Of a stretch of 64,000 bases of DNA, positions 11,869 to 36,958 are shown one piece after another. Location: contig JAEZJG010000021.1 in assembly GCA_023415795.1 (NCBI GenBank), forward strand, positions 28,876 through 92,875. Direction: 5' to 3'. Within the stretch, counting starts at the first letter, position 1, and the number at the start of each line of letters is the position of its first letter. The stretch is from Bacillota bacterium. GTDB taxonomy: Bacteria > Bacillota > Clostridia > Christensenellales > SZUA-584. Below the pieces are notes generated by a model, which was not told where the DNA came from, made no database searches, and worked only from the letters and a program-made list of their open reading frames with translations. The position numbers and the translations under genes were made by a program.

Positions 11869-13176
11869 TTAAACTCCTTTGCCGGCAGCCGCGACGCCCC
11901 GCACCTCAGCCAGCGCCCGTTCGGCCACCATACGCTTTCTCTCGCTTTTCGCCCTTGCTTCTATTGTATTGATCAAACCATATGTGATATTCATCGGCTG
12001 AAAGTCTGCACCGGCATAGCCGGACACATAAGCCGACAGCGCACCCATCGCGGTGTTTTGAGAAAACTCCGGACGCGCCTGTCCCAGAACATCACATGCT
12101 GCGCACAGCCCCGCCAGCAATCCGGAAGCCGCGCTCTCCACATACCCTTCCACACCGGTGATCTGCCCCGCGAGATACAACCCCGGACGAGTCTTACACT
12201 CGTAATGCCGGTTGAGCACCCTGGGACCATTCACAAACGCATTCTTATGCATCACGCCGAAGCGGGCATACTCCGCGTGTTCAAGGCCGGGTATCATGCC
12301 GAATACGCGCCGCTGTTCGCCAAACTTCAGATGCGTCTGAAACCCGACGAGGTTGTACATGCGCCCCTCGTTGTCCTCTCTTCGCAGCTGCACGACAGCG
12401 TACGGTTTCGTCCCGTCCGGCATCGTCAGCCCCACCGGCTTCATTGGCCCGTATCGCAGCGTATCCACACCGCGCCGCGCCATCGTCTCCACCGGCATAC
12501 AGCCCTCAAATACTCTATCGTCCTCAAAGCCGTGCAGCTGTGCCGCCTCAGCCTTGATCAATTCCTCCCAAAACGCATGGTACTGCGCCCTGTCCATCGG
12601 ACAGTTGAGATAATCGTCCCCGTTACCCTTACCGTAGCGTGACGCGAAATACGCCTTGCCCATGTCGATGGATTCTGCCGTCACAATGGGCGCTGCCGCG
12701 TCGAAGAACGACAAAAAGCCCTCCGCGATCTCACTGATGTGCTGCGCCAATGCGCCCTCCACCAGCGGTCCCGGAGCTGCTATCGTGATGCCGTCGCCCG
12801 GCAGCGATGTGACTTCGCCGCGCACAACCTCAATGTTCTCATGCTGTTCCAGCGTTTGCGTCACATAACGCGAAAACGCCTCTCTGTCCACCGCCAGCGC
12901 GCCGCCCGCAGGCACGCACGTCGCGTCCGCCGCCTGTATGACAAGTGAGTCAAGCTCGCGCATCTCCTGCTTCAGCAGCCCCACTGCGCTTTCAATGCCC
13001 GCAGCTCGCAGAGAGTTAGAGCACACCAGCTCTGCAAATCCCCCCAGCTTGTGCGCGGGTGAGCGCTTGTCCGGCTTCTGCTCAAAAAGCCGCACGCGTA
13101 CACCGCGGCTCGCCAGCTGCCACGCAGCTTCGCAGCCCGCCAAGCCCGCGCCGATCACCGTTACGCTATTCTTCAC
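11869..13176 (-). CDS. trmFO: Methylenetetrahydrofolate--tRNA-(uracil-5-)-methyltransferase TrmFO
   Basis: 435 aa. [21 protein letters not shown] fold and VCSNSLR. Lies between topA and hslV as in other Bacillota. Confidence 0.9.
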
Positions 13177-15469
13177 TGCCGTCCGCCTTGCGTTTCTGGT
13201 TCTTTACACACTCCGGATTGGAGCATTTCTTAAAGCTGCTGCCGCCCGACAAACGCCGCAGCACCATCATAGAGCCGCAAGCCTCGCACTTCTCGGCAAT
13301 GGGCATATCCCACGACACGTAATCGCATTCCGGATAGCCTTCGCAGCCATAAAATGTCTTTCTCGTCTTGGCAGAGCGCTTCTCCACGATGCGCTTGCCG
13401 CACTTGGGGCACGGTGTGTCGATGTATTTGACCACCGGCTTGGTGTTGCGGCACTCGGGGTATCCCGGACATGCCAGGAAGGGTCCAAATCGACCGTCCT
13501 TGTACACCATCATGCGTCCGCACTTCTCGCACGCCACGTCGGATTCCTTCACGGGCAGCTCAACGCGCTCGATGCTTTTGTCCGCTTCCTCCACCGTCTG
13601 CTCGAATGGCGTATAGAAGTCGCGCAGCAGCTTCTTCCATTCCTTACCGCCGTTCTCGATATCGTCCAACTGGTTTTCCAGCTCTGCTGTAAACTCCACG
13701 TCCACAATGTCCGAGAACTTCTGCTTCATCATGTTGTTGACGATTACACCCAGTTCGGTGGGCTTGAGCGAGCGCCCTTCCTTTTCGATGTAACGCCGCT
13801 CTTGGATTGTAGAAATGATGGGCGCGTACGTGCTGGGGCGGCCGATGCCCTTCTCCTCCAGCGCACGCACCAGCGTCGCCTCGGTATATCGGCCGGGCGG
13901 CTGCGTAAAATTCTGTTTGGGGTTCAGGCTCTTGAGCGGGCATACCTCTCCTTCCGTCAAAGGCGGCAGGAAATTGTCCTTGCTGTCGTCGTCATCGCCG
14001 GTAAAGCTAGCGGTGTAGCCCTTGAACACCATGTGCGAGCCGGTCGCGCGGAATGTACAGTCGCCCGCATCAATATTCACCGCCATCGTCTCAGAGACGG
14101 AGGGCGTCATCTGGCTGGCCACAAAGCGCGCGTATATCAGCTTGTAAAGGCGGTATTGATCCTTAGACAGTGTGTTCTTAAGCGAATCGGGCGTCAGCTC
14201 CATGTGCGACGGACGAATGGCCTCATGCGCATCCTGAGCTTTTTTAGATTTCTTAAAGTAATTGGGCTTCTCAGGCAGATAGTCCGGCCCGTATTGCTGA
14301 ACAATGTGCTCTCGCACGGCGGTCAGAGCCTCGTCAGACACGCGAGTCGAGTCTGTACGGATATACGTCACCAGACCTACCGGTCCGCTCGTGCCGATCT
14401 CCACGCCCTCGTACAGCTGCTGTGCCACCAGCATCGTGCGCTTGGCGGTAAATCCCAGTGCGCCGGAGGCAGCCTGCTGCAGATAGCTAGTGGTGAACGG
14501 CGGCGGTGCGCTCTTTCTCTTCTCGCCCTTCTTGATGGATGAGACAACATAGTCTTTGCCGGCCACCGCATTTATTATTTCGTCGGCCTGCTCTTTGCTG
14601 TGCAGTTCCTGCTTTTCCCCGCCCCGTCCGTAGAACTTAGCCTCAAACTCCTGCGTTCCCGCCGCGTTTTTCAGCGCCGCGGTAATCGTCCAATATTCCT
14701 CCGGCACAAACGCCGTGATCTCGTCTTCCCGGTCGCAGATAATCCGTACCGCGACAGACTGCACACGCCCCGCCGAAAGTCCCTTTTTCACCTTGCGCCA
14801 CAGCAGCGGAGAGAGCTTATAGCCCACCAGCCGATCCAGCACACGCCGTGCCTGCTGCGCATCCACCAGATCAAGGTTTAACTGACGCGGATGGCTGATC
14901 GCGTTGGTCACCGCGTTTTTGGTAATCTCATTAAACTCGATGCGGCTTACCTCGCTAGGCTCCACTCCCAGCATCTGTGCGATGTGCCAAGATATTGCCT
15001 CGCCCTCTCTGTCAGGGTCTGTTGCAAGGTAAATATGACGCGCGCCGCCAGCGCCCGTTTTCATCGCGGAGATAACATCCTTCTTGCCGCGTATCTGAAT
15101 ATATTTGGGTTCAAAGTCATGCTCGACGTCTACGCCCAGCGTGCTCTTAGGCAGATCGCGCACGTGCCCGCCGCTGGCCTGCACCTTATAGCCGCTGCCC
15201 AAGAACTGACTGATCGTCTTAGCCTTTGCGGGAGACTCTACAATCACCAGATCATAAGCTCTTCCCGGCTTCGCAGACGTTTTGCGCTTCGCAGTGCTTT
15301 TCTTTGCTGCCGCTGTGCCGCTGCTCTTCTTTGCCGCCGTGCCGCTTTTCTTAGCCGCGCCAGTGTTCTTTTTTGCTGCTGCCGCGCCGGTGCTTTTCTT
15401 TGCTGTCGTGCCGCTCTTCTTCGCCGCGCCCGACTCATTGCCGGTATTGCTTGCGGTGCTCTTTTGCAT
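13166..15469 (-). CDS. topA: DNA topoisomerase I with an N-terminal Lys/Ala-rich repeat tail
   Basis: TOPRIM start LVIVESPAKAKTI, catalytic region GYVTYIRTDS-like (VTYIRTDSTR), and three C-terminal Cys4 zinc ribbons. The ATG at 15469 follows GGAGAAG. The ORF-track start at 15481 is a TTG. Confidence 0.9.
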   Translation of the reverse strand: MQKSTASNTGNESGAAKKSGTTAKKSTGAAAAKKNTGAAKKSGTAAKKSSGTAAAKKSTAKRKTSAKPGRAYDLVIVESPAKAKTISQFLGSGYKVQASGGHVRDLPKSTLGVDVEHDFEPKYIQIRGKKDVISAMKTGAGGARHIYLATDPDREGEAISWHIAQMLGVEPSEVSRIEFNEITKNAVTNAISHPRQLNLDLVDAQQARRVLDRLVGYKLSPLLWRKVKKGLSAGRVQSVAVRIICDREDEITAFVPEEYWTITAALKNAAGTQEFEAKFYGRGGEKQELHSKEQADEIINAVAGKDYVVSSIKKGEKRKSAPPPFTTSYLQQAASGALGFTAKRTMLVAQQLYEGVEIGTSGPVGLVTYIRTDSTRVSDEALTAVREHIVQQYGPDYLPEKPNYFKKSKKAQDAHEAIRPSHMELTPDSLKNTLSKDQYRLYKLIYARFVASQMTPSVSETMAVNIDAGDCTFRATGSHMVFKGYTASFTGDDDDSKDNFLPPLTEGEVCPLKSLNPKQNFTQPPGRYTEATLVRALEEKGIGRPSTYAPIISTIQERRYIEKEGRSLKPTELGVIVNNMMKQKFSDIVDVEFTAELENQLDDIENGGKEWKKLLRDFYTPFEQTVEEADKSIERVELPVKESDVACEKCGRMMVYKDGRFGPFLACPGYPECRNTKPVVKYIDTPCPKCGKRIVEKRSAKTRKTFYGCEGYPECDYVSWDMPIAEKCEACGSMMVLRRLSGGSSFKKCSNPECVKNQKRKADGSEE

Positions 15470-15892
15470 ACACTTCTCCAATGTCTGTCATAATGCGGGG
15501 CGTCCGGCGAAACCGCCCTTCGCTTTAAATCCGCCATAGCGGTGCGCTTATTGTGCGCCGGAACCTCCGGTTTACCGCTATTTTATGCGGTGCCGTGGCT
15601 TTTGAATACAGCTTATGCCCTGCAAGTGCAAATTATATAGAAGGTGATGGAAAAAATCAAGCATATTTGCCGCACGGTTTATTTCACTGTTAAACGAAAG
15701 GGCAAAACCATGCGTTGTTTTGTGCGCGGTATATATAATAGTAAGAAACCTTACTTGCGTTCATTTTCACGCCTCTTTATGCGCACTGATTATATCCTTT
15801 AACACCGCACTGCCAGACACACATATAAGTCTTCACCCTGCACTATGTCTGCGCGATATTCTACTATTATTGTCACAGTGTGTCGCGCGGCG

Positions 15893-26047: not shown

Positions 26048-26593
26048 ATGCACTTTTCGAAGACGAAGAAGATGGTGCTGTCCGCCATGTTTCTCGCGCT
26101 GGGCATACTGCTGCCTATGCTGGTGGGACACCTGATCCCGATGGGCTGGATTCTGCTGCCGATGCATGTTCCGGTGCTGCTGTGCGGATTCATCTGCGGC
26201 GGACCATGGGGTCTGCTGGTGGGTGCGGTCGCGCCGCTGCTCTCCAGCGCAATCACCGGCATGCCGGGGCTTTACCCCACCGCTGCCGCCATGGCTTTTG
26301 AGCTGGCCGCCTACGGTCTGCTGGCGGGTCTGTTCTACAAGCTCTTCCCCAAGAAAATCGGCTTTATCTTCGTATCGCTGATACTCGCAATGGTCGGCGG
26401 GCGCATCGTTTGGAGCCTTGTGAGCCTCGTGCTGTATGGCATAGCGGGCACGGCCTTCACCTGGGGCGACATTCTAGGCGGTGCAATCGTCATGGTATTC
26501 CCCGGCATTATCATTCAGCTGGTACTGATCCCTGCCATCATGATCGCGCTGCAGCTCACACAGAAAAAAAAGGCGGAGTTCATCGCTGCATGA
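26048..26593 (+). CDS. ECF transporter S (substrate-capture) component, substrate unknown
   Basis: 181 aa, six TM helices. LPMHVPVLLCGFICGGPWGLLVG..APLLSS...PTAAAMAFELAAYG is a pattern common in ECF S components. No adjacent A/T components. Confidence 0.75.
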   Translation: MHFSKTKKMVLSAMFLALGILLPMLVGHLIPMGWILLPMHVPVLLCGFICGGPWGLLVGAVAPLLSSAITGMPGLYPTAAAMAFELAAYGLLAGLFYKLFPKKIGFIFVSLILAMVGGRIVWSLVSLVLYGIAGTAFTWGDILGGAIVMVFPGIIIQLVLIPAIMIALQLTQKKKAEFIAA

Positions 26594-27666
26594 AGCAAAT
26601 ACTGCTTGCCCACATACATCAATATCCGCTGATGCAGCCCACTGATATGGTGAAGCTGCTGTATCAGAGCGAGTTTGCGGGCGGGCACATGATAACCGAC
26701 CCCGAGCAGTGTCTCTCGCGCCTTGTGGACGAGAGCCGCGGCGCTGCGCCGCGCGCCGTTGCCCATGCCTTTGAGCCCATCGGCGGCGGGCTGTGCCGCC
26801 TGCATCTGGGTGCATTGACCGCGCTGGGCATTACGCCGCAGACGCTGAACCGGTTGTTTATTGCCACCGCGAATATTGTCACCGGGTCGGCAGAGCGCTT
26901 TGCCGCAATGCTGGACGCGTTCTTGGACTGGTGCCGCAGTGGCGAGCTGCCCTGTGATTTTGCGGCTGCGGAACGCTACGTGCGGTATTACCGCGCACAG
27001 GGCTGCCCGCCCGTGTCTCACAGCAACGCCTACCGCGCCGCCTACGCCCCCGCCTACCGGGTGGTGAAAGCAGCATACTGCCCCTACCTCGAGGTGTTCC
27101 GCCGCATCGACGCGCTGCTTAACAAAAAGTCTGCCGTAACCGTTGCGATAGAAGGCAACAGCGGTGCGGGCAAAAGCACGCTGGCTGCGCTGCTTGCGGA
27201 GGTATACGACTGCAACGTGTTCCACACTGACGACTACTTTTTGCCGCCGGTACGCAAAACCGCGCAAAGGCTTGCGGAGCCGGGTGGCAATGTGGACTAT
27301 GAACGCCTGCAAAGCGAGGTAGCCGAAGGTATTAGGAATGGCGGCTCCATCACATACCGCCGCTACGACTGTCAAACCGGCAAAATGGGCGAATCAATCA
27401 CAGCGCCGCCTGCACGTCTCAGTGTGGTTGAAGGCGTGTACAGCCTGCACCCGGCATTGGGTCTTGCATACGACCTGGCGGTTTTTTTGAAGGCAGAGGG
27501 CGCGGCTCAGCAGCAGCGCATCCGTTTGCGCAGCGGCGATGCCATGCTAAAACGCTTCATCAACGAATGGATACCGCTGGAGAATCGCTACTTCGAGGCT
27601 TATAAAATTGAACAAAAATGCGATTTCAAATTTCTGCTTGACGAAAATATGGAGGCGTGCATATAA
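26590..27666 (+). CDS. Two-domain protein: unrecognised N-terminal domain + uridine-kinase/PRK-like P-loop kinase
   Basis: The ATG at 26590 overlaps the upstream TGA (ATGA). Walker A is AIEGNSGAGKSTLA, then FHTDDYF and VVEGVY, a Udk/PRK-type layout. I do not recognise the N-terminal ~170 aa. Confidence 0.65.
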   Translation: MKQILLAHIHQYPLMQPTDMVKLLYQSEFAGGHMITDPEQCLSRLVDESRGAAPRAVAHAFEPIGGGLCRLHLGALTALGITPQTLNRLFIATANIVTGSAERFAAMLDAFLDWCRSGELPCDFAAAERYVRYYRAQGCPPVSHSNAYRAAYAPAYRVVKAAYCPYLEVFRRIDALLNKKSAVTVAIEGNSGAGKSTLAALLAEVYDCNVFHTDDYFLPPVRKTAQRLAEPGGNVDYERLQSEVAEGIRNGGSITYRRYDCQTGKMGESITAPPARLSVVEGVYSLHPALGLAYDLAVFLKAEGAAQQQRIRLRSGDAMLKRFINEWIPLENRYFEAYKIEQKCDFKFLLDENMEACI

Positions 27667-27667
27667 T
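27638..27667 (+). promoter_or_regulatory. Candidate aro-operon promoter (TTGACG-N18-TATAAT)
   Basis: TTGACG at 27638-27643 and a perfect TATAAT at 27662-27667, which overlaps the kinase stop codon. Confidence 0.55.
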
Positions 27668-27736
27668 AAACTTAACCAAAAGCACCCAAGCGGCGTCTAT
27701 CGTTGTAAGGGCATTGTGAAATCAAGGAGCGCGCTG

Positions 27737-27856
27737 ATGAACGGCTGTTTATCCGCAAAACTGTATTTTACGTTTAGAAACCCGGGCTATTATTATAGCT
27801 TCGGGTATTTCTCGTTAAATCAGAATAAGCGGACAACGGCAGAATGGGCGGCTTAA
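27737..27856 (+). CDS. Candidate Tyr/Phe-rich leader peptide (39 aa) of the aro operon
   Basis: AAGGAG (27724-27729) lies 7 nt before the ATG. Sequence is MNGCLSAKLYFTFRNPGYYYSFGYFSLNQNKRTTAEWAA. It sits between the promoter and the terminator, upstream of aroF. Confidence 0.5.
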   Translation: MNGCLSAKLYFTFRNPGYYYSFGYFSLNQNKRTTAEWAA

Positions 27857-27893
27857 TACATACGCACACGGCGTATCGATATATGCAGATAAT

Positions 27894-27920
27894 GGGAGCT
27901 CATCACCGGGCTCCCTTTTT
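27894..27920 (+). terminator. Intrinsic terminator (attenuator) 31 nt upstream of aroF
   Basis: GGGAGCTC-atcacc-GGGCTCCC, an 8-bp stem with one G-U pair, followed by TTTTT. Confidence 0.7.
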
Positions 27921-27951
27921 GATTTATTTTTAAACAGGAGGACACTAAACG

Positions 27952-28968
27952 ATGATTGTTATCTTAAAGCCTCACGCGGATGCCGCCAAGGTAGACAGCC
28001 TGATCAAATCGCTGGAAACGGACTTTGGTCTTGAGGTGCAGCGCATGGACGGCGTGAACTACTCGATACTGGGGCTCATCGGCGATACCACATCGCTGGA
28101 CATGGAACCAATACAGGATCACGACACGGTGCGCAAGGTGATGCGCGTGCAGGAGCCGTACAAAAAGGTGAACCGCGCATTTCATCCGGACCCCACCACC
28201 GTTGTGGGGAACGGCTTTACCATTGGCGGACAGCAGCTGGCGGTGATGGCAGGCCCTTGCTCCGTAGAAGACGAGGAGCAGATCGTCTCCGTCGCTAAGG
28301 CAGTGAAGGCGGCAGGCGCCAACTTCCTGCGCGGCGGTGCGTTCAAGCCGCGTACCAGCCCGTACCGCTTTCAGGGTCTCGGCAAGGAGGGGCTGGAATA
28401 TCTGCTGACGGCAAAGCGGGAAACCGGGCTGCCCATCGTTTCCGAAATCATCAGCACACAGGACATTGATCTGTTCGTGGACATGGTGGACGTGATACAG
28501 GTGGGTGCGCGCAACATGCAAAACTTTGTGCTTTTGAAGGAGCTGGGCAAAACGCAGAAGCCTGTGCTGCTAAAACGCGGCCTGTCCGCCACCATTGAGG
28601 AATGGCTGATGAGCGCTGAGTACATCGCGGCGGGCGGCAACCCCAACGTAATACTGTGCGAGCGTGGGATCCGCACGTTCGAAACGCAGACACGCAACAC
28701 GCTGGACATCTCTGCTGTCCCCGTTATTAAGCGGCAGAGCCATCTGCCCGTGATCGTAGACCCCAGCCACGCCACCGGGTTGTGGTGGGCAGTGGAGCCG
28801 CTGGCCGTTGCATCTGTGTGCGCCGGGGCGGACGGCGTGATGATCGAGGTGCATGAGAACCCCGCGGCGGCGCTGTCAGACGGTAAACAGTCTTTGCTGC
28901 CCGAAACGTTCTGCGGCGTTATGGAGAAGCTCAAAGGCGCGGCGGCGCTGATGGGCCGGACGGTGTAG
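27952..28968 (+). CDS. aroF: 3-deoxy-7-phosphoheptulonate (DAHP) synthase, type I-beta with N-terminal regulatory domain
   Basis: 338 aa. The N-terminal ferredoxin-like domain (MIVILKPHAD...) precedes a KDO8PS-like barrel (GPCSVE, KPRTSPY.FQG, CERGIRTFE, DPSH). Confidence 0.9.
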   Translation: MIVILKPHADAAKVDSLIKSLETDFGLEVQRMDGVNYSILGLIGDTTSLDMEPIQDHDTVRKVMRVQEPYKKVNRAFHPDPTTVVGNGFTIGGQQLAVMAGPCSVEDEEQIVSVAKAVKAAGANFLRGGAFKPRTSPYRFQGLGKEGLEYLLTAKRETGLPIVSEIISTQDIDLFVDMVDVIQVGARNMQNFVLLKELGKTQKPVLLKRGLSATIEEWLMSAEYIAAGGNPNVILCERGIRTFETQTRNTLDISAVPVIKRQSHLPVIVDPSHATGLWWAVEPLAVASVCAGADGVMIEVHENPAAALSDGKQSLLPETFCGVMEKLKGAAALMGRTV

Positions 28969-28970
28969 CC

Positions 28971-29801
28971 ATGGAGGCTCACTTTAGAAGCGCCCGCGTG
29001 CTGGTCGCGGGGCTGGGGCTTATCGGCGGTTCCGTTGCAAAAGCACTCCGGCTGGCGGGCATCGAACGAATTGACGGTCTGGATACCGACGCCGCCACGT
29101 TGGCTGCTGCTCAGGCACAGGGTGTCATCAGCGGCGGTTTCCAGAATAGCTTTAGCTACGATCTCGTGATATGCAGCCTAGCGCCCAGCATGGTGCCCGC
29201 ACTGTATGAGCAGGTGCGCGGCAGTCTCAAGGCGGGCGGCGTGTTTTCGGAGCTGTCCGGGCTGAAGACGGACATCGCACGCGTGCTGGTTTCGGCGCTG
29301 GCGCATGGTCACGAGCTGCTGTGCCTGCACCCGATGGCAGGCAGCGAGAAGTCCGGCTATGCTTACTCGGACGCGGAACTGTTTTACGGCGCAACGCTGA
29401 TACTCACGCCGACGGTGCGCACCGGGCAAGCCGCGTTTGCATGGGCAGAAATTCTGCGAGACGCGCTGGGCTGCGACGATATGCCCACGCTTGATGCGGA
29501 TGCGCATGATCGTATCGTGGCGGATATGAGCCATCTGCCCCACATCGCCGCTCTCGCGGTGCGCGCGGTGGGCAAAGATACGGAAGCATTTGCGGGCGGC
29601 AGCTATCGTTCGGTCACGCGGGTTGCAGACATCAATGCGCCGCTCTGGGCAGGACTATTGACGGACAACGCAGAATATTTGCTGGAGAGCATCGGCAAGC
29701 TCCGCGCCCGGCTGGACGCGCTGGAGGCGGCGGTGCAGGCCCGCGATGCGGCAGCGCTGGAGCAGCTGCTGCGCGATATTTCCCTCAGGGAGGACACATG
29801 A
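28971..29801 (+). CDS. tyrA: Prephenate dehydrogenase
   Basis: 276 aa. VAGLGLIGGS Rossmann motif and HPMAG. Confidence 0.85.
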   Translation: MEAHFRSARVLVAGLGLIGGSVAKALRLAGIERIDGLDTDAATLAAAQAQGVISGGFQNSFSYDLVICSLAPSMVPALYEQVRGSLKAGGVFSELSGLKTDIARVLVSALAHGHELLCLHPMAGSEKSGYAYSDAELFYGATLILTPTVRTGQAAFAWAEILRDALGCDDMPTLDADAHDRIVADMSHLPHIAALAVRAVGKDTEAFAGGSYRSVTRVADINAPLWAGLLTDNAEYLLESIGKLRARLDALEAAVQARDAAALEQLLRDISLREDT

Positions 29802-30868
29802 AAGAGATCATCGTCAACACACCCTCTTCTCCATACACAATCACCGTGGGCAGCGGTGTGCTGGAAAGCGTACCGCGAAGGCTGGGGCGTATGTTTCCCA
29901 AAAGCCGCTTTGTCATCGTCACCGACGATAAAGTGAACGCTCTGTACGGTGCGGCGCTGACTGCCGCGTTTACAAAGCAAAAACTAGATTGCAAGGTTTT
30001 TTCAGTGCCGCCGGGTGAAGCGTCCAAAAGCGTTTCCACCTTCGGTCAGCTGCTCAGCCAGCTGGCGCAGCATAAGTACAACCGCGCCGATGTGATTGTG
30101 GCGCTGGGCGGCGGCATCGTCGGAGACCTTGCCGGTTTCGTGGCCGCCAGCTATCTGCGCGGCGTGAAATACGTGCAGATACCCACAACGCTGCTGGCGC
30201 AGATCGACAGCTCAGTGGGCGGCAAAACGGGAGTGAACCTGCCGGAGGGCAAGAACCTCGCGGGCGCGTTCTACCAACCTGCGGCGGTGTTCATCGATCC
30301 TGACTTTCTGAGCACACTGCCTGACGCGGACTTTGCCGACGGCATGGCAGAGCTGATCAAATATGCATTGATACGCGACACCAACATGTTCCTGCTGCTG
30401 GAAAATGGCCCTGTGATCACGGCGCAGTCCCGACAGCTGGAGGAGCTGGTTGTGCAGTGCGTGTCCATCAAGCGCGATGTGGTAGTGGCAGACGAAAGGG
30501 ATACAGGCGAGCGTATGCTGCTCAACTTCGGCCACACCATCGGTCACGCCATTGAGCGCATCTGTGCGCAAGGCAGTCTTCCGATGACGCACGGCAAAGC
30601 CGTCGCAATGGGCATGGCCGCCATCACAGCCGTGGGTGTTCGCAAGGGGCTGACCAAGCTAGGCACCACCTCCCGCGTGGAAGCCGTGCTGCAAAAGGCG
30701 GGTCTGCCGCACAGCATCGAAGGGTTTAGCCGCGACGACATACTGGACGCGATTTTGGTAGACAAGAAAAACATGGCGGGTTCGCTGCACCTGGTGATGA
30801 TCAGTGAGCCGGGGCAGTCGTTTCTGCACAGCATACCGCGCGGCAGCATGCCCGACTACATTATATAA
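29798..30868 (+). CDS. aroB: 3-dehydroquinate synthase
   Basis: 356 aa. GGGIVGDLAGFVAA, VQIPTTLLAQIDSSVGGKT, LNFGHTIGHAIE. Confidence 0.9.
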   Translation: MKEIIVNTPSSPYTITVGSGVLESVPRRLGRMFPKSRFVIVTDDKVNALYGAALTAAFTKQKLDCKVFSVPPGEASKSVSTFGQLLSQLAQHKYNRADVIVALGGGIVGDLAGFVAASYLRGVKYVQIPTTLLAQIDSSVGGKTGVNLPEGKNLAGAFYQPAAVFIDPDFLSTLPDADFADGMAELIKYALIRDTNMFLLLENGPVITAQSRQLEELVVQCVSIKRDVVVADERDTGERMLLNFGHTIGHAIERICAQGSLPMTHGKAVAMGMAAITAVGVRKGLTKLGTTSRVEAVLQKAGLPHSIEGFSRDDILDAILVDKKNMAGSLHLVMISEPGQSFLHSIPRGSMPDYII

Positions 30869-30879
30869 GGAAGTATCTC

Positions 30880-32133
30880 ATGGATCTGACTATACAACCC
30901 GGACATCTGCATGGCACCGTCGCGGTGCCACCCTCCAAGAGCGCGGCTCACCGGGCGATCATTTCGGCGGCGCTGGCAAACGGAAGCAGCGCTATCTCAA
31001 ACGTGGATTTGTCCAGCGACATCCGCGCCACCATCGGCGCGTGCCGTGCGTTGGGCATCGATATGCGCATGGACGGCGACACGCTGACCGTGGACGGCGG
31101 ACAACTGCGCTTAACGAGTGAGGCCATCGACTGTGCTGAGTCTGGCTCCACGCTGCGGTTCTTCATCCCCGTCGCGTGTACTCTGGGCGGAGACAAAACG
31201 TTTATCGGTCACGGAAGGCTGCCGATGCGACCTGTTGATTCGTATCTTCAGATATTTGATACGCAAGGCACCCCCTACGCCCGCCCTCCGGGCTACAACC
31301 TCCCGCTCACCGTTTCCGGCGCGTTGCGCTCCGGCGATTTTCGTGTGGACGGGCGCGTCAGCTCTCAGTTCGTCACCGGCTTGCTGTTTGCGCTGCCATT
31401 GTTGGCGGGCGATTCGCGCATCGCCGTGATCGGGGGCTTCGAGTCGCGCGGGTATGTGGATCTCACCGTGGACATACTGCGCCGCTTCGGTGTTGACATT
31501 GCCGTCGACGGAGATAATTTTGCCATCAAGGGCAGTCAGCGGTATATGCCGCAGAACCTCCGCGTGGAGGGCGATTATTCACAGGCGGCATTCTTCCTTG
31601 TGGGCGGCGCAATATCGGACGGCATCCGCGTGGACGATCTCGACGCACACTCGCTCCAGCCCGATCGCGCCATTGTGGACATACTAAGGCAGATGGGCGC
31701 AGACATCACAGCAAAGGACGGCGCTCTTGTCTCGCACCCCGCCAAGCTGCGCAGTGCGCTGATCGACGTTTCGCAGTGCCCCGACCTCGTGCCGCCGCTG
31801 GCCATCGCCGCCGCTTATGCGGAGGGTAAGACGCATATCACAGGCGCGGCGCGGCTGCGCATCAAGGAGTCAGACCGCCTTCATGCGCTGGCGCAAAATC
31901 TTGCCGCGCTGGGCATCCGCGCGGAAGAACTGCCGGACGGTCTCATCATACACGGCGGACAGCCAACGGGCGGCGAGATCGACAGCTTTGGCGACCACCG
32001 CATTGCGATGGCGTTCTCCATCGCGGCTGCGGGCGCATCCGGCGCTGTCGCTATACGCGGTGCGGAATGCGTGGATAAATCATACCCCAAGTTCTACGAA
32101 GATTACAAAGCATTGGGAGGAAATATACAATGA
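30880..32133 (+). CDS. aroA: 3-phosphoshikimate 1-carboxyvinyltransferase (EPSP synthase)
   Basis: 417 aa. PPSKSAAHRA, SGSTLRF, SSQFVTGLLFALP, KESDRL, DHRIAMAF. Confidence 0.9.
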   Translation: MDLTIQPGHLHGTVAVPPSKSAAHRAIISAALANGSSAISNVDLSSDIRATIGACRALGIDMRMDGDTLTVDGGQLRLTSEAIDCAESGSTLRFFIPVACTLGGDKTFIGHGRLPMRPVDSYLQIFDTQGTPYARPPGYNLPLTVSGALRSGDFRVDGRVSSQFVTGLLFALPLLAGDSRIAVIGGFESRGYVDLTVDILRRFGVDIAVDGDNFAIKGSQRYMPQNLRVEGDYSQAAFFLVGGAISDGIRVDDLDAHSLQPDRAIVDILRQMGADITAKDGALVSHPAKLRSALIDVSQCPDLVPPLAIAAAYAEGKTHITGAARLRIKESDRLHALAQNLAALGIRAEELPDGLIIHGGQPTGGEIDSFGDHRIAMAFSIAAAGASGAVAIRGAECVDKSYPKFYEDYKALGGNIQ

Positions 32134-33209
32134 GCAGCGTCTGGGGCAGACACTTCATCATCGACATATTCGGCGAATCACACGGACCCAAGATCGGCGC
32201 GGTACTGCATGGCGTACCGTCCGGCACCGTACTGGATTTCCCCAAGCTCCGCGCTTTTCTGGATCGGCGCAAGCCGGGCGGTGAGGCGTGGTCCACCAAG
32301 CGGCAGGAGGCGGACGACTTTGAGATCGTCAGCGGCTATTACTACGGGCACGCCACAGGCACGCCGCTCTGCGTGCTGTTCCACAACACCAACATGCATT
32401 CAGGCGACTACGACAACCGACCTAACCGCCCCGGTCATGCGGACTACACCGGGCACGTGCGTTACGGCGGCTTCAACGACCCGCGCGGCGGCGGCCACTT
32501 CTCCGGGCGTCTCACCGCACCGCTGGTATTCGCGGGCGCGGTTGCCGCACAGGTGCTGGAACAAAAGGGCATATATGCCGCTACCCACGTGCGCCGCATC
32601 GCAGACGTGGAGGATGCGGCGTTCGACAAGACCACTATCCCCCGCGCGCTGGCGGAGTCGCTTGCCGCCATGCGTCTGCCGCTGCTGGACGACACCAAAG
32701 CGCCACAGATGGAGCAACGCATTAAAGAAGCTGCATCCGAGGGTGATTCTGTGGGCGGCATCGTGGAGTGCGCAGTATGCGGTCTGCCCGCCGGTCTCGG
32801 CAGCCCCATGTTCGGTGCGGCAGAGAGCGTCATCTCCTCGCTGCTGATGGCGGTTCCCGCTATCAAGGGTGTCTCTTTCGGCGAGGGCTTCGGCTTTGCG
32901 GACATGCGCGGCAGCGCAGCCAACGACCCCTATGCGATCAGCAACGGCAACATCACCGCTGTCACCAACCACAACGGCGGCGTGCTGGGCGGCATCACCA
33001 ACGGCAGTCCGCTCGTGTTTGAAGCGGTCGTCAAGCCCACAGCGTCCATCTTCCAGCCGCAGCAGACAGTGAACCTGCAAACGATGGCGGAAGAAACGCT
33101 GTCTCTCAAGGGGCGGCACGACGCCTGTATCGTTCCGCGGGCGGCAGTGGCCATCGAAGCGGCGGCTTATGTCGCCGTGCTGGATCTGATGATGGAAAGG
33201 GGTTGGTGA
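32130..33209 (+). CDS. aroC: Chorismate synthase
   Basis: 359 aa. FGESHG, RPGHADY, GGGHFSGR, GRHDACIVPRA. Confidence 0.9.
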   Translation: MSSVWGRHFIIDIFGESHGPKIGAVLHGVPSGTVLDFPKLRAFLDRRKPGGEAWSTKRQEADDFEIVSGYYYGHATGTPLCVLFHNTNMHSGDYDNRPNRPGHADYTGHVRYGGFNDPRGGGHFSGRLTAPLVFAGAVAAQVLEQKGIYAATHVRRIADVEDAAFDKTTIPRALAESLAAMRLPLLDDTKAPQMEQRIKEAASEGDSVGGIVECAVCGLPAGLGSPMFGAAESVISSLLMAVPAIKGVSFGEGFGFADMRGSAANDPYAISNGNITAVTNHNGGVLGGITNGSPLVFEAVVKPTASIFQPQQTVNLQTMAEETLSLKGRHDACIVPRAAVAIEAAAYVAVLDLMMERGW

Positions 33210-34330
33210 CAGTGGGGTACGAAGAGGAAATCAGCGTCCTTCGGGATCGCATCAACGAAATAGACGCGCAGCTTGTGCCGCTGTTCGAGGCGCGTATGCG
33301 GGCGGCTGACGATGTCGCCGAGGTCAAGCAGCGCTATAACAGACCGGTATACGACGCCTCACGTGAGGATGTGGTTATCCAGCGTGCGCTGGAGAAGCTG
33401 GGCGACGGCGCTTATGCCGACCTGCTGCGCCGCTTTTACCAGTCGCTGATGGGCATCAGTCGGCAGCGCCAGCGCACACAGATCAGCTATCCCGCGTCAG
33501 CACACCTCGCAGACGGCGCGGTGGGCTATCTTGGACTGCCCGGCTCATTCTCCTACATCGCCGCGCAGCAAGCTTTTCCGAACGCGGAGCTGAAAAGCCT
33601 GCCGTCGTTCCAAGCCATATTCGAGTCGTTGAAAACCGGCAGCATCACACTGGCCATGCTGCCGGTGGAAAACACAGAGACAGGCAGTATCACCTCCGTG
33701 ATCGATCTGCTGGCACGCTACGGATACTTCATCGTGGCGGAGCGGCTGATTAAGGTAACTCAGAGCCTGCTCGCACCCGTCGGCGCAACGCTGGACAGCA
33801 TCACCAGGCTGTATTCACACCCGGAGCCCATCGCTCAGTGCAGCGTGTTCCTCGATAACCACCCGCAGATGGCGGCGTTCCCGTCCCTCAGCACCGCACA
33901 GGCGGCGCACGACGTGGCGCAGATGAACGACGTCACGGTGGGCTGCATCGCGTCGCCCGAGGCGGCGGCGATATATGGACTTGTCGAGCTGGCATCCGGC
34001 ATACAGAACAGCGACGGCAACAGCACGCGCTTTGCCGTGGTATCGGCACAGCCGCATGTAAACGCCTCGTGCGATAAAACGAGCATCGTGTTCATGGTGG
34101 ATCACAGCCCCGGCTCGCTGCACGAGGTCATCCAGCTGTTCTCGGAGGGCGGCGTCAACATCATGAAGCTGGAATCGCGCCCGCTCAAGGACAGACCGTT
34201 TGAGTATCTGTTCCATCTGGATTTCGAGGGCAGCGTGGGCGATCCGCACGTTGCGGCCGTGCTGGACAGCGTGCGCGAAAAATCAGCCGAGCTGACATGG
34301 CTGGGCTCGTATCCGCGCATGGCGCAATAA
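33203..34330 (+). CDS. pheA: Bifunctional chorismate mutase / prephenate dehydratase
   Basis: 375 aa. N-terminal CM type 2 (LRDRINEIDAQLVPLFEARM), a PDT domain (GLPGSFSY ... VENTETGSI) and a C-terminal ACT domain (ESRP). TTG start. Confidence 0.85.
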   Translation: MVTVGYEEEISVLRDRINEIDAQLVPLFEARMRAADDVAEVKQRYNRPVYDASREDVVIQRALEKLGDGAYADLLRRFYQSLMGISRQRQRTQISYPASAHLADGAVGYLGLPGSFSYIAAQQAFPNAELKSLPSFQAIFESLKTGSITLAMLPVENTETGSITSVIDLLARYGYFIVAERLIKVTQSLLAPVGATLDSITRLYSHPEPIAQCSVFLDNHPQMAAFPSLSTAQAAHDVAQMNDVTVGCIASPEAAAIYGLVELASGIQNSDGNSTRFAVVSAQPHVNASCDKTSIVFMVDHSPGSLHEVIQLFSEGGVNIMKLESRPLKDRPFEYLFHLDFEGSVGDPHVAAVLDSVREKSAELTWLGSYPRMAQ

Positions 34331-34338
34331 GGAGAAGA

Positions 34339-35628
34339 ATGATCAAGGCTGGTCTCATCGGCGAAAAGCTGAGCCACAGCATATCGCCGCAAATACATCA
34401 TAAATATGGACGCCTGACAAATACAGAAATCGTCTACCGGCTGCACGAAACGCCGCCGGACGGTCTGCCCGCGCTGCTGGATGCGCTGGAAGCCCAAGGC
34501 TATGCAGGCGTGAACGTGACGATCCCCTATAAGAAGGCTGTGATGCCGCACCTCTCCGCGCTCTCTCCGCAGGCGCAGGCCATCGGCGCAGTCAACACGA
34601 TCTGCTTTGAAAAGGGGCGGCGTATCGGACACAACACCGACTATTTTGGCCTGAAATCGCTGCTGGAGCGCAACGGCATCACGCTGCAGGGCCAACGCGT
34701 GGCTGTGCTGGGCAGCGGCGGCGCAGCACGGTGCGCGTACTTTCTAGCTCAAGATGAAGGCGCGTCGGAGGTACTCACCGTCAGCCGCCACCCCGAAAGC
34801 ACGGATACCGACCTGAACACAATCTGCTACGACACCCTGGCGCAAATGAGTAGTATTAGAGTGCTCATCAACGCCACACCTGTCGGCATGCACCCCCACA
34901 CTGCCGCCTGTCCCATATCCGATGCCATCATTGATAAGTGCGTCGCGGTGGTGGACACGATCTATAATCCACCCGAAACGGCGCTGCTGGCAAAGGCACG
35001 CGAGCGCGGCATCCCCCATGCCAACGGCTTTTGGATGCTGGTCGCTCAAGCCTTGGCGGCACAGCAAGTTTGGACAAATCGAGCGTTCACGATGGACGAA
35101 TGTGCCGCCGTGCACAATTTTGTCCGCCGATCCAACATCGTGCTGATCGGCATGCCGGGCAGCGGCAAATCCACCGTCGGGCGACTGCTGGCACAAAGGC
35201 TTGGTATGGGCTTCCTCGATACGGACGCAATGATCGAAACAGTACACGGCCCTATCCCCGATATTTTTTCGTCCGCGGGCGAAACCGTATTCCGGCAGTA
35301 CGAACTGACCACAGCACACGAGGCCGCCAACACCATGAACACCGTGATATCCACCGGCGGCGGCATGGTGCAGACGGAAGCCGCCATGAGGGCATTGCAT
35401 GCTTCGGGCATAGCCGTCTACGTGGACAGACCGCTGGAGATATTACTGCGCGAAACGGAAACAGAAGGCCGCCCGCTGCTGGCATCCGGGCGCGGCGCAT
35501 TGGTTGCGCTGTACGAGAAGCGCCATCCCCTGTATAATGGATCCGCAGACATAGTGGCAGAAAACACGGCGGACGCACAAAGCTGCGTCGATACGATAGT
35601 AGAAAAGCTGGAGGAATACCGCAAATGA
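34339..35628 (+). CDS. Fused shikimate dehydrogenase / shikimate kinase
   Basis: The N-terminal part is AroE-like (GLIGEKLSHSISPQIH, NVTIPYK, GAVNT, NTDY.G, GSGGAAR). The C-terminal ~165 aa are AroK-like (IGMPGSGKSTVGRLLA, DTD, GGG). The ATG at 34339 follows GGAGAAG. Confidence 0.85.
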   Translation: MIKAGLIGEKLSHSISPQIHHKYGRLTNTEIVYRLHETPPDGLPALLDALEAQGYAGVNVTIPYKKAVMPHLSALSPQAQAIGAVNTICFEKGRRIGHNTDYFGLKSLLERNGITLQGQRVAVLGSGGAARCAYFLAQDEGASEVLTVSRHPESTDTDLNTICYDTLAQMSSIRVLINATPVGMHPHTAACPISDAIIDKCVAVVDTIYNPPETALLAKARERGIPHANGFWMLVAQALAAQQVWTNRAFTMDECAAVHNFVRRSNIVLIGMPGSGKSTVGRLLAQRLGMGFLDTDAMIETVHGPIPDIFSSAGETVFRQYELTTAHEAANTMNTVISTGGGMVQTEAAMRALHASGIAVYVDRPLEILLRETETEGRPLLASGRGALVALYEKRHPLYNGSADIVAENTADAQSCVDTIVEKLEEYRK

Positions 35629-36056
35629 AGATACTTGTGATCAACGGGCCCAATATCAACATGCTGGGGCAGCGCGAGCCGGATGTATACGGCAGGCAGG
35701 ATTATGCGGCGCTGAAGGCGGGGCTGGCCGATTTCGCGCGTTCCCACAACGTTGAGATCGACGAATACCAGTCCAACATTGAGGGCGAGCTGGTCACGAA
35801 GATACAGCAGGCTCAAGGGCTCTACGACGGCATCGTCATCAACCCTGGCGCGTACACGCACTACAGCATCGCGATACTGGACGCGCTCAAAGCCGTCACC
35901 GTGCCCGCCATTGAGGTGCACCTCTCCAACATCCACGCGCGCGAAGACTTCCGCCACAAGTCGGTAACGGCAGCAGGCTGTGTCGGCCAGATTTCCGGCC
36001 TTGGGTTTGATTCGTATTTTCTTGCGGTGCTCGGGCTGATAAGCCGGGTGAAATAG
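35625..36056 (+). CDS. aroQ: Type II 3-dehydroquinate dehydratase
   Basis: 143 aa. ILVINGPNINMLG.REP..YG, NPGAYTHYSIAI.DA, EVHLSNIHAREDFR. Confidence 0.9.
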   Translation: MKILVINGPNINMLGQREPDVYGRQDYAALKAGLADFARSHNVEIDEYQSNIEGELVTKIQQAQGLYDGIVINPGAYTHYSIAILDALKAVTVPAIEVHLSNIHAREDFRHKSVTAAGCVGQISGLGFDSYFLAVLGLISRVK

Positions 36057-36067
36057 CAAGGGAACCG

Positions 36068-36958
36068 TTAATATAAATCTATATAATTGCTTAAAAAGTA
36101 ACGGCGCGGCTCATACTTCAGTTCCGGTTTGATTCCCTTATTAAATTGTTCGTGTACTCTTTCTAATAAAGCTACTTGGTCTTTAATCTTCCAGCCGTTT
36201 TCTTTGTACATTTCTTTCTTATACCTAATTATTTCATTATAACTTTTTTCATATTCTTCATTTGTTAAATATTCTTTATATGTAATTAGTATGATTGCTA
36301 AAATGTCTTCCTGTACGTCATACACTCGTATTAGTTCTTCAGTATGTTCTTTAATTTTCTCTAAATTATTTGTATAGTAATATATCATTAGTATATTAAC
36401 TAAGTCGGCATGGATAGTATTATTAATCTCGTTTAGCAGATAATCAGCGATCTCATTTGCTTCATTCAATTTACCCAATCTCATTAAGCAAAGAGCATAA
36501 TTTATATATACATAATCGTCTTCAAATGAATTCTTTGAGTAGTAATGATCATAAGCTTTTCTCAAGTGCATTTCAGCAGACTCAAAATCCTCCATTCCCA
36601 TGAATATACATCCCATTACAAAATAATCATCAATACATAGATCGCTTTTTGCTATTTGATGTTGAATCTCTTTTGCTTTTCCATACTCCTTTTTCGCATA
36701 ATGTATATCCCTTAACAACCTTAACGATGATACGTTAGTCTTAAGCCGTAGTGCTTCCGCGCAGTATTTAGAAGATTTCTTAAAGGTGCTTAATTCATAC
36801 CAAAATGGATTCAACTCTTCACATTTAAAGTAGTACCAAGCCAAGTTATTATAAGTAATGAATGAAGGATTTTTCTTTGCATTCAATATAAAATATTTCT
36901 TTGCATTTTTATAGCTGCTATTTAGTTCCGAGATCGCAAGATTATTAATTTCTTTCAT
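36068..36958 (-). CDS. Hypothetical TPR-like repeat protein, low-GC orphan
   Basis: The gene is strongly AT-rich, unlike its neighbours. Helical repeats have TPR-like spacing (YGKAKEIQHQIA..., FESAEMHLRKAYDHY, LGKLNEANEIADYLL). The probable ATG at 36958 lies 6 nt after AAGGA. The ORF-track TTG start is at 36979. Confidence 0.6.
   Translation of the reverse strand: MKEINNLAISELNSSYKNAKKYFILNAKKNPSFITYNNLAWYYFKCEELNPFWYELSTFKKSSKYCAEALRLKTNVSSLRLLRDIHYAKKEYGKAKEIQHQIAKSDLCIDDYFVMGCIFMGMEDFESAEMHLRKAYDHYYSKNSFEDDYVYINYALCLMRLGKLNEANEIADYLLNEINNTIHADLVNILMIYYYTNNLEKIKEHTEELIRVYDVQEDILAIILITYKEYLTNEEYEKSYNEIIRYKKEMYKENGWKIKDQVALLERVHEQFNKGIKPELKYEPRRYFLSNYIDLY

Follow-up and report, generated by a model that had tools for sequence, protein, structure and literature searches.

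A stretch of 64,000 nucleotides from a Bacillota bacterium of the Clostridia (order Christensenellales; assembly GCA_023415795.1, contig JAEZJG010000021.1, positions 28,876 to 92,875), hereafter called the window, contains an operon for aromatic amino acid biosynthesis preceded by a leader region that possesses a promoter, a small open reading frame (ORF), and an intrinsic terminator. The operon comprises aroF, tyrA, aroB, aroA, aroC, pheA, an aroE-aroK fusion, and aroQ, and all eight ORFs have NCBIfam matches. Its pheA gene encodes a chorismate mutase joined to a prephenate dehydratase, and no trp gene is found among the eight annotated ORFs. This gene content agrees with an earlier, sequence-only reading of the same DNA, in which the operon was said to make chorismate, tyrosine, and phenylalanine and to contain no trp genes, and in which the aroF leader was proposed to be a ribosome-mediated attenuator responding to tyrosine and phenylalanine. 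In Bacillota, the control of amino acid biosynthesis is usually ascribed to T-boxes, TRAP, and protein regulators. Here, we describe a computational analysis of the aroF leader, documenting its parts and their conservation, the conservation of its reading frame, the architecture of a long hairpin that encloses the ORF, and an alternative pairing backed by covariation. Together, these observations point to a leader-peptide attenuator. The features of the locus, in window coordinates, are listed below (SD, Shine-Dalgarno sequence).

27638-27667, + strand: sigma-70-type promoter
27685-27711, + strand: 5'-proximal stem-loop, seen in the minimum free energy (MFE) fold
27724-27729, + strand: SD of the leader ORF
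27727-27854, + strand: long hairpin P1
27737-27856, + strand: leader ORF
27764-27811, + strand: run of aromatic codons with a putative regulatory role
27837-27855, + strand: block 3 (last codons and stop), which is the 3' base of P1 and the candidate 5' antiterminator strand
27893-27908, + strand: candidate 3' antiterminator strand
27894-27920, + strand: intrinsic terminator
27936-27954, + strand: SD and start codon of aroF
27952-36056, + strand: aroF operon

The leader promoter, in which TTGACG (27638-27643) and TATAAT (27662-27667) are separated by an 18-nt spacer, scores 11/12 and is the top promoter-like site in a 10-kb scan of positions 26400-36500. It overlaps the stop and last codons of an upstream ORF (26410-27666), and transcription is predicted to start near 27674-27676, ~7 nt past the -10 box. 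The ATG of the leader ORF (27737) lies 7 nt downstream of its SD, AAGGAG, and the ORF extends for 39 codons to a TAA at 27854-27856, encoding MNGCLSAKLYFTFRNPGYYYSFGYFSLNQNKRTTAEWAA. Nine of the 16 residues from position 10 to 25 are aromatic (Y10, F11, F13, Y18, Y19, Y20, F22, Y24, and F25); the five Tyr residues are all encoded by TAT, and the four Phe residues by TTT, TTT, TTC, and TTC. When both strands of the window were scanned for SD-preceded ORFs of 12-70 codons with at least 8 aromatic residues in any 16, the leader ORF was the sole one recovered. The proteins encoded nearby are only 6.7% aromatic, with TAT as their minor Tyr codon, and the combined elements of the leader far exceed chance.

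The terminator arms, GGGAGCTC (27894-27901) and GGGCTCCC (27908-27915), or GGGAGCUC and GGGCUCCC in the RNA, form eight pairs, one of them U-G, around the loop AUCACC and are followed by five T residues at 27916-27920 (U5 in the transcript). The hairpin by itself has a folding energy of -15.4 kcal/mol and is the strongest terminator-like site of the 10-kb scan. Only 31 nt separate the T-run from the aroF ATG (27952-27954), which is preceded by the SD AGGAGG (27936-27941), and no promoter-like site was found between the terminator and this ATG. The sequence-only reading had described each of these elements, and all were recovered when checked on the sequence: the promoter with its 18-nt spacer, the SD, 7-nt spacing, start, and 39 codons of the leader ORF, the recounted aromatic run with its codons, the 8-bp hairpin and T5, and the lack of room for a promoter past the terminator.

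A genome scan with AroF yielded 80 loci, of which the 21 closest, at 72-93% AroF identity, are from metagenome-assembled genomes labelled Christensenellales, Christensenellaceae, or Bacillota. A homologous small ORF is present upstream of aroF in all 21, and the promoter and terminator are conserved in all 20 of these loci for which the full leader sequence is available. A profile built from the 21 leader peptides led to 18 instances annotated as 'hypothetical proteins' in public data, and a metagenome scan with a permissive pattern contributed two true leaders (L083 and L177) among at least 120 matches listed. The closest loci, the contigs found with the profile, and these two leaders make up a final set of 34 non-identical leaders, all of them Christensenellales-like. 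[quoted passage not shown] The gene upstream of the leader, on the other hand, varies by locus (a neighbour of an energy-coupling factor (ECF) transporter, a gene of the phosphotriesterase family, and others), which argues that the leader belongs to aroF. Of the 20 relatives with enough upstream sequence, 19 have the promoter ahead of the leader, in the form TTGAC[GT]-N17/18-(G)CATATAAT.

The reading frame of the leader is conserved as well. The homologous ORFs span 31-52 codons, and 33 of the 34 leaders have an SD-like motif before an in-frame ATG, the most divergent leader, L206, having only a weak AGGCGG. When the 130 nt preceding the conserved GCUAUUAU core were searched for an SD and ATG without regard to frame, the result was 38 candidates in the 34 leaders, and 37 of them share their frame with the Tyr codons; the distances from ATG to core (39, 48, 51, 54, 57, 60, and 93 nt) are every one divisible by three. 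The frame is thus kept across at least six classes of insertion and deletion, including a 39-nt insertion in L214, and the YYY and YY variants of the core differ by a 3-nt indel. At nine alignment columns, aromatic residues account for at least 79%, and at six of the nine for at least 97%. Within the aromatic columns, synonymous codons vary (TAT in 18 leaders and TAC in 14 at one column; TTT in 19 and TTC in 11 at another), Phe and Tyr exchange with one another, and non-aromatic substitutions are few. The N- and C-terminal residues drift, whereas the core does not, and in two leaders (L002 and L039) the C-terminus is frameshifted while the stop stays at a nearly unchanged nucleotide position. 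Free termini combined with a fixed codon class and a fixed stop position are the pattern of a leader peptide rather than of a functional protein. An alignment of relatives had been suggested in the sequence-only reading as a check, and the small ORF, SD, ATG, frame, aromatic codons, and terminator are all found to be conserved across the 34 leaders.

The RNA of the leader (27675-27925) folds with an MFE of -86.2 kcal/mol (z = -4.5 versus shuffles). In this fold, which also contains the 5'-proximal stem-loop and the terminator, the whole ORF is enclosed in hairpin P1, at the base of which the SD/AUG region (27727-27738) pairs with the last codons and stop (27844-27854), and at the apex of which a hairpin (27780-27806) falls on the YY(Y) codons. 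Independent MFE folds reveal that the P1 architecture recurs in most of the 21 relatives. RNAalifold, applied to a MAFFT alignment (A1) and to a codon-based alignment, recovered no more than the apex hairpin and, on A1, the terminator as well; it misses the outer part of P1 because the pairing register shifts between lineages. Folds of single sequences and a comparison of cognate with non-cognate arms were therefore used in its place. Cognate P1 arms pair with a mean energy of -21.4 kcal/mol as against -17.2 kcal/mol for non-cognate arms, and the cognate partner has a median rank of 7 out of 34 despite the presence of many close relatives. This sequence comparison indicates that the two arms of P1 co-evolve.

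Block 3, the 3' strand of the P1 base, has a second potential partner. It resembles the 3' arm of the terminator and can pair with positions 27893-27908, which comprise the 5' arm of the terminator, its loop, and the first G of its 3' arm, in a duplex of 14 pairs (-11.4 kcal/mol by RNAduplex) that also appears in the MFE fold of 27821-27907. Because the stop codon falls within block 3, this segment would be covered by a ribosome at termination, as region 2 is in classical attenuators. In 12 of 21 leaders, the terminator 5' arm has its best partner in block 3, for example CGGUCAUGGGUUGCUUG with AAGGGAGCUCAUUACC at -14.5 kcal/mol, and a search confined to the stop region recovers this pairing in almost all 34. 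Pairs were counted on a MAFFT alignment of 33 leaders (A3) that was not fitted to any structure. In the antiterminator columns 86.3% of cells pair, a value that falls to 33-54% when the partner is slid by 1-3 columns; four pairs have changed on both sides, and covariation is 0.217 compared with a shuffled mean of 0.167 (0/500 shuffles reach the observed value). For the terminator itself, the corresponding values are 93.9% of cells, 25-77% when slid, three pairs changed on both sides, and a covariation of 0.181 compared with 0.120 (again 0/500). By these counts, the covariation support of the candidate block 3 antiterminator is comparable to that of the terminator. Furthermore, two covarying pairs (columns 16/88 and 21/86) link nucleotides upstream of block 3 to the terminator loop, whose nucleotides have no other obvious cause to covary. 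L206 has an unrelated terminator (CAGACUC/GAGUCUG), for which the best partner is once more a segment overlapping the L206 stop codon; the cognate pairing there has an energy of -11.4 kcal/mol, whereas the same stop segment pairs with the terminators of other groups at -4.9 to -7.4 kcal/mol.

Folding the leader in search of mutually exclusive helices, another check suggested in the sequence-only reading, points to a candidate antiterminator that would compete with the P1 base and with the terminator. The antiterminator that had been proposed in that reading, 27784-27793 with 27889-27901, is not conserved, and the block 3 pairing takes its place: the ATAAT flank of the former is found in the window leader alone, and its 5' strand would lie under a ribosome stalled at Y18-Y20.

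The most probable reading of these observations, to which we assign a probability of about 0.78, is that the leader controls the operon from aroF and tyrA through pheA as a ribosome-mediated transcription attenuator responsive to Tyr and Phe. The conservation of the leader, the variable genes upstream of it, and the lack of any Rfam match support this core interpretation of the sequence-only reading, and a coupling of operon expression to the supply of charged tRNA-Tyr and tRNA-Phe would be the best explanation of the leader sequences. We infer that the leader ORF is translated, that ribosomes stall within it, that kinetics favours the antiterminator, and that the extent of read-through depends on Tyr and Phe. 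A ribosome would load on the leader SD and AUG while both are single-stranded. In the default state, in which the ORF is not translated, it would fold as P1, with the SD and AUG sequestered by block 3; the terminator would form and the operon would be off. When Tyr and Phe are replete, the ribosome would reach the stop codon within block 3 and mask it, the terminator would again form, and the operon would likewise be off. When either Tyr or Phe is scarce, the ribosome would stall on the aromatic codons at the P1 apex (27764-27811) and P1 could not zip. Block 3, now free, would then pair with the emerging 5' arm and loop of the terminator, permitting RNA polymerase to read into aroF.

Several results weigh against this mechanism, and the antiterminator and the kinetics are its least certain parts. 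When a 27-nt ribosome footprint was masked at every codon in equilibrium folds of 21 leaders, the terminator stayed in essentially all states, so the switch model needs a kinetic argument. In the E. coli trp leader, the 3:4 helix is far stabler than the 2:3 helix and switching is kinetic. For transcripts ending before the 3' arm, the computed chance of finding the 5' arm unpaired was not discriminating, as pairing across the masked ribosome was permitted. The antiterminator of the window is weak (-11.4 to -14 kcal/mol), and truncated segments containing it are no more stable than shuffles (z ~ +0.3). The comparison of cognate with non-cognate antiterminator energies is supportive in the main group of leaders and in L206, uninformative in the GGAGCC group, and contrary in the GGAAGC terminator group, where there is no cognate preference. 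Additionally, in the window and the leaders nearest to it, a second candidate antiterminator, in which the segment just 3' of the apex pairs with the spacer and the terminator 5' arm, has a score at least as good. With a ribosome stalled at codons 10-25, the SD/AUG partner of block 3 would stay uncovered, so that the P1 base could re-form as a rival of the antiterminator; the outcome would have to be decided by loop entropy or by a second, initiating ribosome. The leader core is also strongly conserved as nucleotides, indicating that RNA-level constraints overlap the coding ones. Finally, the antiterminator strand contains a UGG codon (W37, 27845-27847) that is a Trp codon in 20 of the 28 leaders with a residue at that column. 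A ribosome stalled there would mask the strand and favour termination under Trp starvation; the conserved UGG may be a by-product of an AUGGG constraint on the RNA.

Among other explanations, the one that survives best, although we consider it unlikely, is that the leader acts in cis as a structured regulatory RNA (a riboswitch, or a leader to which a protein or tRNA binds) and senses its ligand directly, the reading frame being a by-product. The unusual stability of the leader (z = -4.5) would suit such an RNA, and so would the nucleotide conservation of the core, block 3, and the terminator, which extends to some third codon positions (column 28 is TTT without exception, and columns 33-34 are TAT almost throughout); because the SD and AUG sit in the P1 base helix, their conservation, too, could be structural. 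These features have to be set against a frame that survives at least six indel classes, with 37 of 38 SD and ATG candidates in frame, and against synonymous codon changes and Phe/Tyr swaps that retain aromatic identity. Moreover, distant genomes with unrelated nucleotide sequences again have an aromatic-rich ORF and a terminator before aroF. At the gathering score, Rfam 15 has no match anywhere in the window, whether to a tRNA, a riboswitch, or a T-box, and at E-values up to 10 nothing relevant is found in positions 27550-28000, neither a T-box nor a leader family (Phe_leader, Trp_leader, Leu/phe leader, and others). The covariance models, RF00230 included, thereby bear out the remark in the sequence-only reading that no T-box is present.

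Less probable still is a functional, aromatic-rich micropeptide, with the hairpin as its partial terminator and aroF expressed by constitutive read-through. The peptide has a conserved core (..YFSF..YY.FGYF..) and several gene callers annotate it as a hypothetical protein; its termini, however, vary, in L002 and L039 even by frameshift, without the stop losing its place relative to block 3, the sequence next to the stop is complementary to the terminator arm, and the association with aroF is exclusive at each locus where it can be checked. Across Clostridia, it is aromatic richness alone, and not sequence, that such peptides have in common. Least probable of all, and by our estimate very improbable, is that the hairpin and T-run end or insulate the upstream kinase-like gene (26410-27666), which has no other strong terminator-like site past its stop, with a separate promoter driving aroF; that stop is 228 nt away from the terminator, which lies behind the conserved 11/12 promoter, the 31 nt before aroF hold no promoter-like site, and in relatives the upstream gene differs while promoter, leader, and terminator stay with aroF.

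Several known systems bear comparison with the window leader. The closest precedent is uORFC-13-1, a motif reported from Acholeplasma and environmental sequences, where its 24 representatives precede aroF, which possesses -35 and -10 boxes, a ribosome-binding site, a start codon, U-runs coding for Phe ('at least one'), and an adjacent intrinsic terminator, and which has been proposed as a candidate attenuator (Brewer et al. 2021, PMC8632094). The window leader shares with it the exclusive association with aroF, the -35 and -10 boxes, the ribosome-binding site, start codon, Phe-coding U-runs, and terminator, and a Bacillota-related lineage, a resemblance that is functional and by description. 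It differs in having nine aromatic codons, in which Tyr is as prominent as Phe, and in belonging to Christensenellales-like Clostridia. Naville and Gautheret (2010, PMC2965389) predicted His leader peptides upstream of the hisZ and hisS paralogues of Bacilli. These putative 'regular' leader-peptide attenuators of Firmicutes likewise stand in for T-boxes; they concern another amino acid, other genes, and another lineage, and are not homologous to the window leader. Thus, of the view in the sequence-only reading that leader-peptide attenuation is textbook for Proteobacteria whereas Bacillota use other mechanisms, the absence of a T-box here stands, but such attenuation is not confined to Proteobacteria (PMC2965389, PMC8632094).

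With the E. coli pheL-pheA (PMC3082878) and trpL-trpE attenuators, the window leader would share a short leader ORF rich in codons for the products, a series of 1:2 hairpin, 2:3 antiterminator, and 3:4 terminator in which the terminator is stabler than the antiterminator, and a stop codon positioned for the terminating ribosome to mask region 2. It has no sequence or covariance-model similarity to them. Its codons for two amino acids are interspersed rather than tandem, and its ORF is long (39 codons) and lies inside one hairpin that sequesters its own SD and AUG, so that the stalled ribosome would sit at the hairpin apex and off the partner strand of region 2. The window leader also precedes, and would control, an entire common pathway and both of its branches. 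The T-box (RF00230), the usual amino-acid-responsive terminator/antiterminator leader of Bacillota, has a similar length (~245 nt) and a terminator; the window leader differs in giving no covariance-model match and in the proposed sensing by a translating ribosome rather than by tRNA binding.

Two further structures vary among the leaders of the 34-member set. The stem-loop at 27685-27711 is missing from most other relatives, whose 5' untranslated regions are much shorter; in L001 a different sequence at this position also forms an inverted repeat, or stem, by eye (not folded). This stem-loop is optional, with a probable stabilising role. At the other end, L006, L008, L010-L013, and L083 have a gap of 75-91 nt between terminator and aroF, holding a second hairpin (GGGAG...CUCCC) that precedes an unusual, repeated GGACGGAAGGACGGA ribosome-binding region. 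This extra hairpin could constitute a second, translational layer of control.

Aromatic leaders are also found in more distant genomes. The 400 nt upstream of aroF were searched in a distant set of 59 loci with 55-64% AroF identity, mostly clostridial and including Ruminococcus, Oscillospiraceae, Acutalibacteraceae, Sedimentibacter, Haloimpatiens, and Tissierellia. At 36 of the 59, there is a small ORF that follows an SD and has at least 6 aromatic residues in 16, as opposed to 1 for the reverse complement and, on average, 0.95 for dinucleotide shuffles; with the threshold raised to 8 in 16, these numbers become 28, 0, and 0.2. Carriers include Ruminococcus albus 8, Hominimerdicola aceti, Haloimpatiens, and Sedimentibacter, and 31 of the 36 loci have a hairpin and U-run before aroF. 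The peptides fall into several unrelated types, such as ..VFTYFFMSLSYFYGFEFFWR.., ..VFTYGFFGFSFWAKV.., and ..QYYFIFIWGYYYF.., some of them with Trp. For 29 of 30 unique distant leaders, the 24-nt segment that pairs best with the terminator 5' arm has its centre between -37 and +20 nt from the stop codon. No T-box was found upstream of aroF in the 20 distant loci that were scanned.

Outside the Clostridia, the aroF locus of Corticicoccus populi (Staphylococcaceae; L077, 2744-2990) has a short ORF, MLGLTKQQINNRFYFSYF, with its own SD, followed by a terminator and then aroF. The Rfam family RF02863 (Enterococcus sRNA_2410), which does not match the window, matches positions 2787-2958 of this locus, covering the region from the ORF to aroF with the terminator included. 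The RNA has been reported only as a small RNA of unknown function produced as two transcripts (PMC5593968); it may be the terminated aroF leader of Bacilli. On a broader proposal we are evenly divided, namely that an aromatic-rich leader peptide with a terminator would be the prevailing control of shikimate entry across Clostridia and probably in some Bacilli (the RFYFSYF leader of Corticicoccus), in the form of several unrelated, uncatalogued families that replace T-boxes and sense two or three aromatic amino acids through interspersed Tyr and Phe (and Trp) codons. In that proposal, the window would represent a design with an ORF-wide hairpin hiding the SD and AUG, and with one 3' segment choosing between closure of the hairpin and antitermination.

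Two other ORFs of the window may be mentioned. The ORF upstream of the leader (26410-27666, 418 amino acids) has weak matches in its C-terminal half to models of P-loop nucleoside/nucleotide kinases and no Pfam match. On the minus strand, at 15690-15764, another SD-preceded small ORF contains a Tyr run (YYYIY; MNASKVSYYYIYRAQNNAWFCPFV) and sits ~200 nt upstream of the topoisomerase I gene topA (13166-15481, minus strand). It was considered as a further attenuator and rejected, no clear terminator being visible by eye, and is probably a chance occurrence.

The conserved leaders indicate that a Tyr/Phe leader switch is widespread in Clostridia and uncatalogued. No description of Tyr/Phe leaders in Clostridia was found in the searchable literature, the coverage of which is incomplete, and to our knowledge tyrosine is not among the textbook signals of leader peptides. 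The committed step of aromatic biosynthesis is here apparently governed by the stalling of ribosomes on Tyr and Phe codons, and the aromatic leader solution recurs, in unrelated sequence families, in most of the clostridial aroF leaders examined, including those of gut and rumen Ruminococcus and Oscillospiraceae. Recognising such leaders would also fill a gap in annotation, as such ORFs are now either uncalled or called 'hypothetical proteins', and the leaders are absent from Rfam. If the attenuator reading is true, tyrosine would join the amino acids sensed by leader peptides, and the leader would be a natural case in which a branched pathway has two of its end products integrated by a single attenuator. 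Such leaders may provide simple parts for Tyr/Phe-responsive control in anaerobes.

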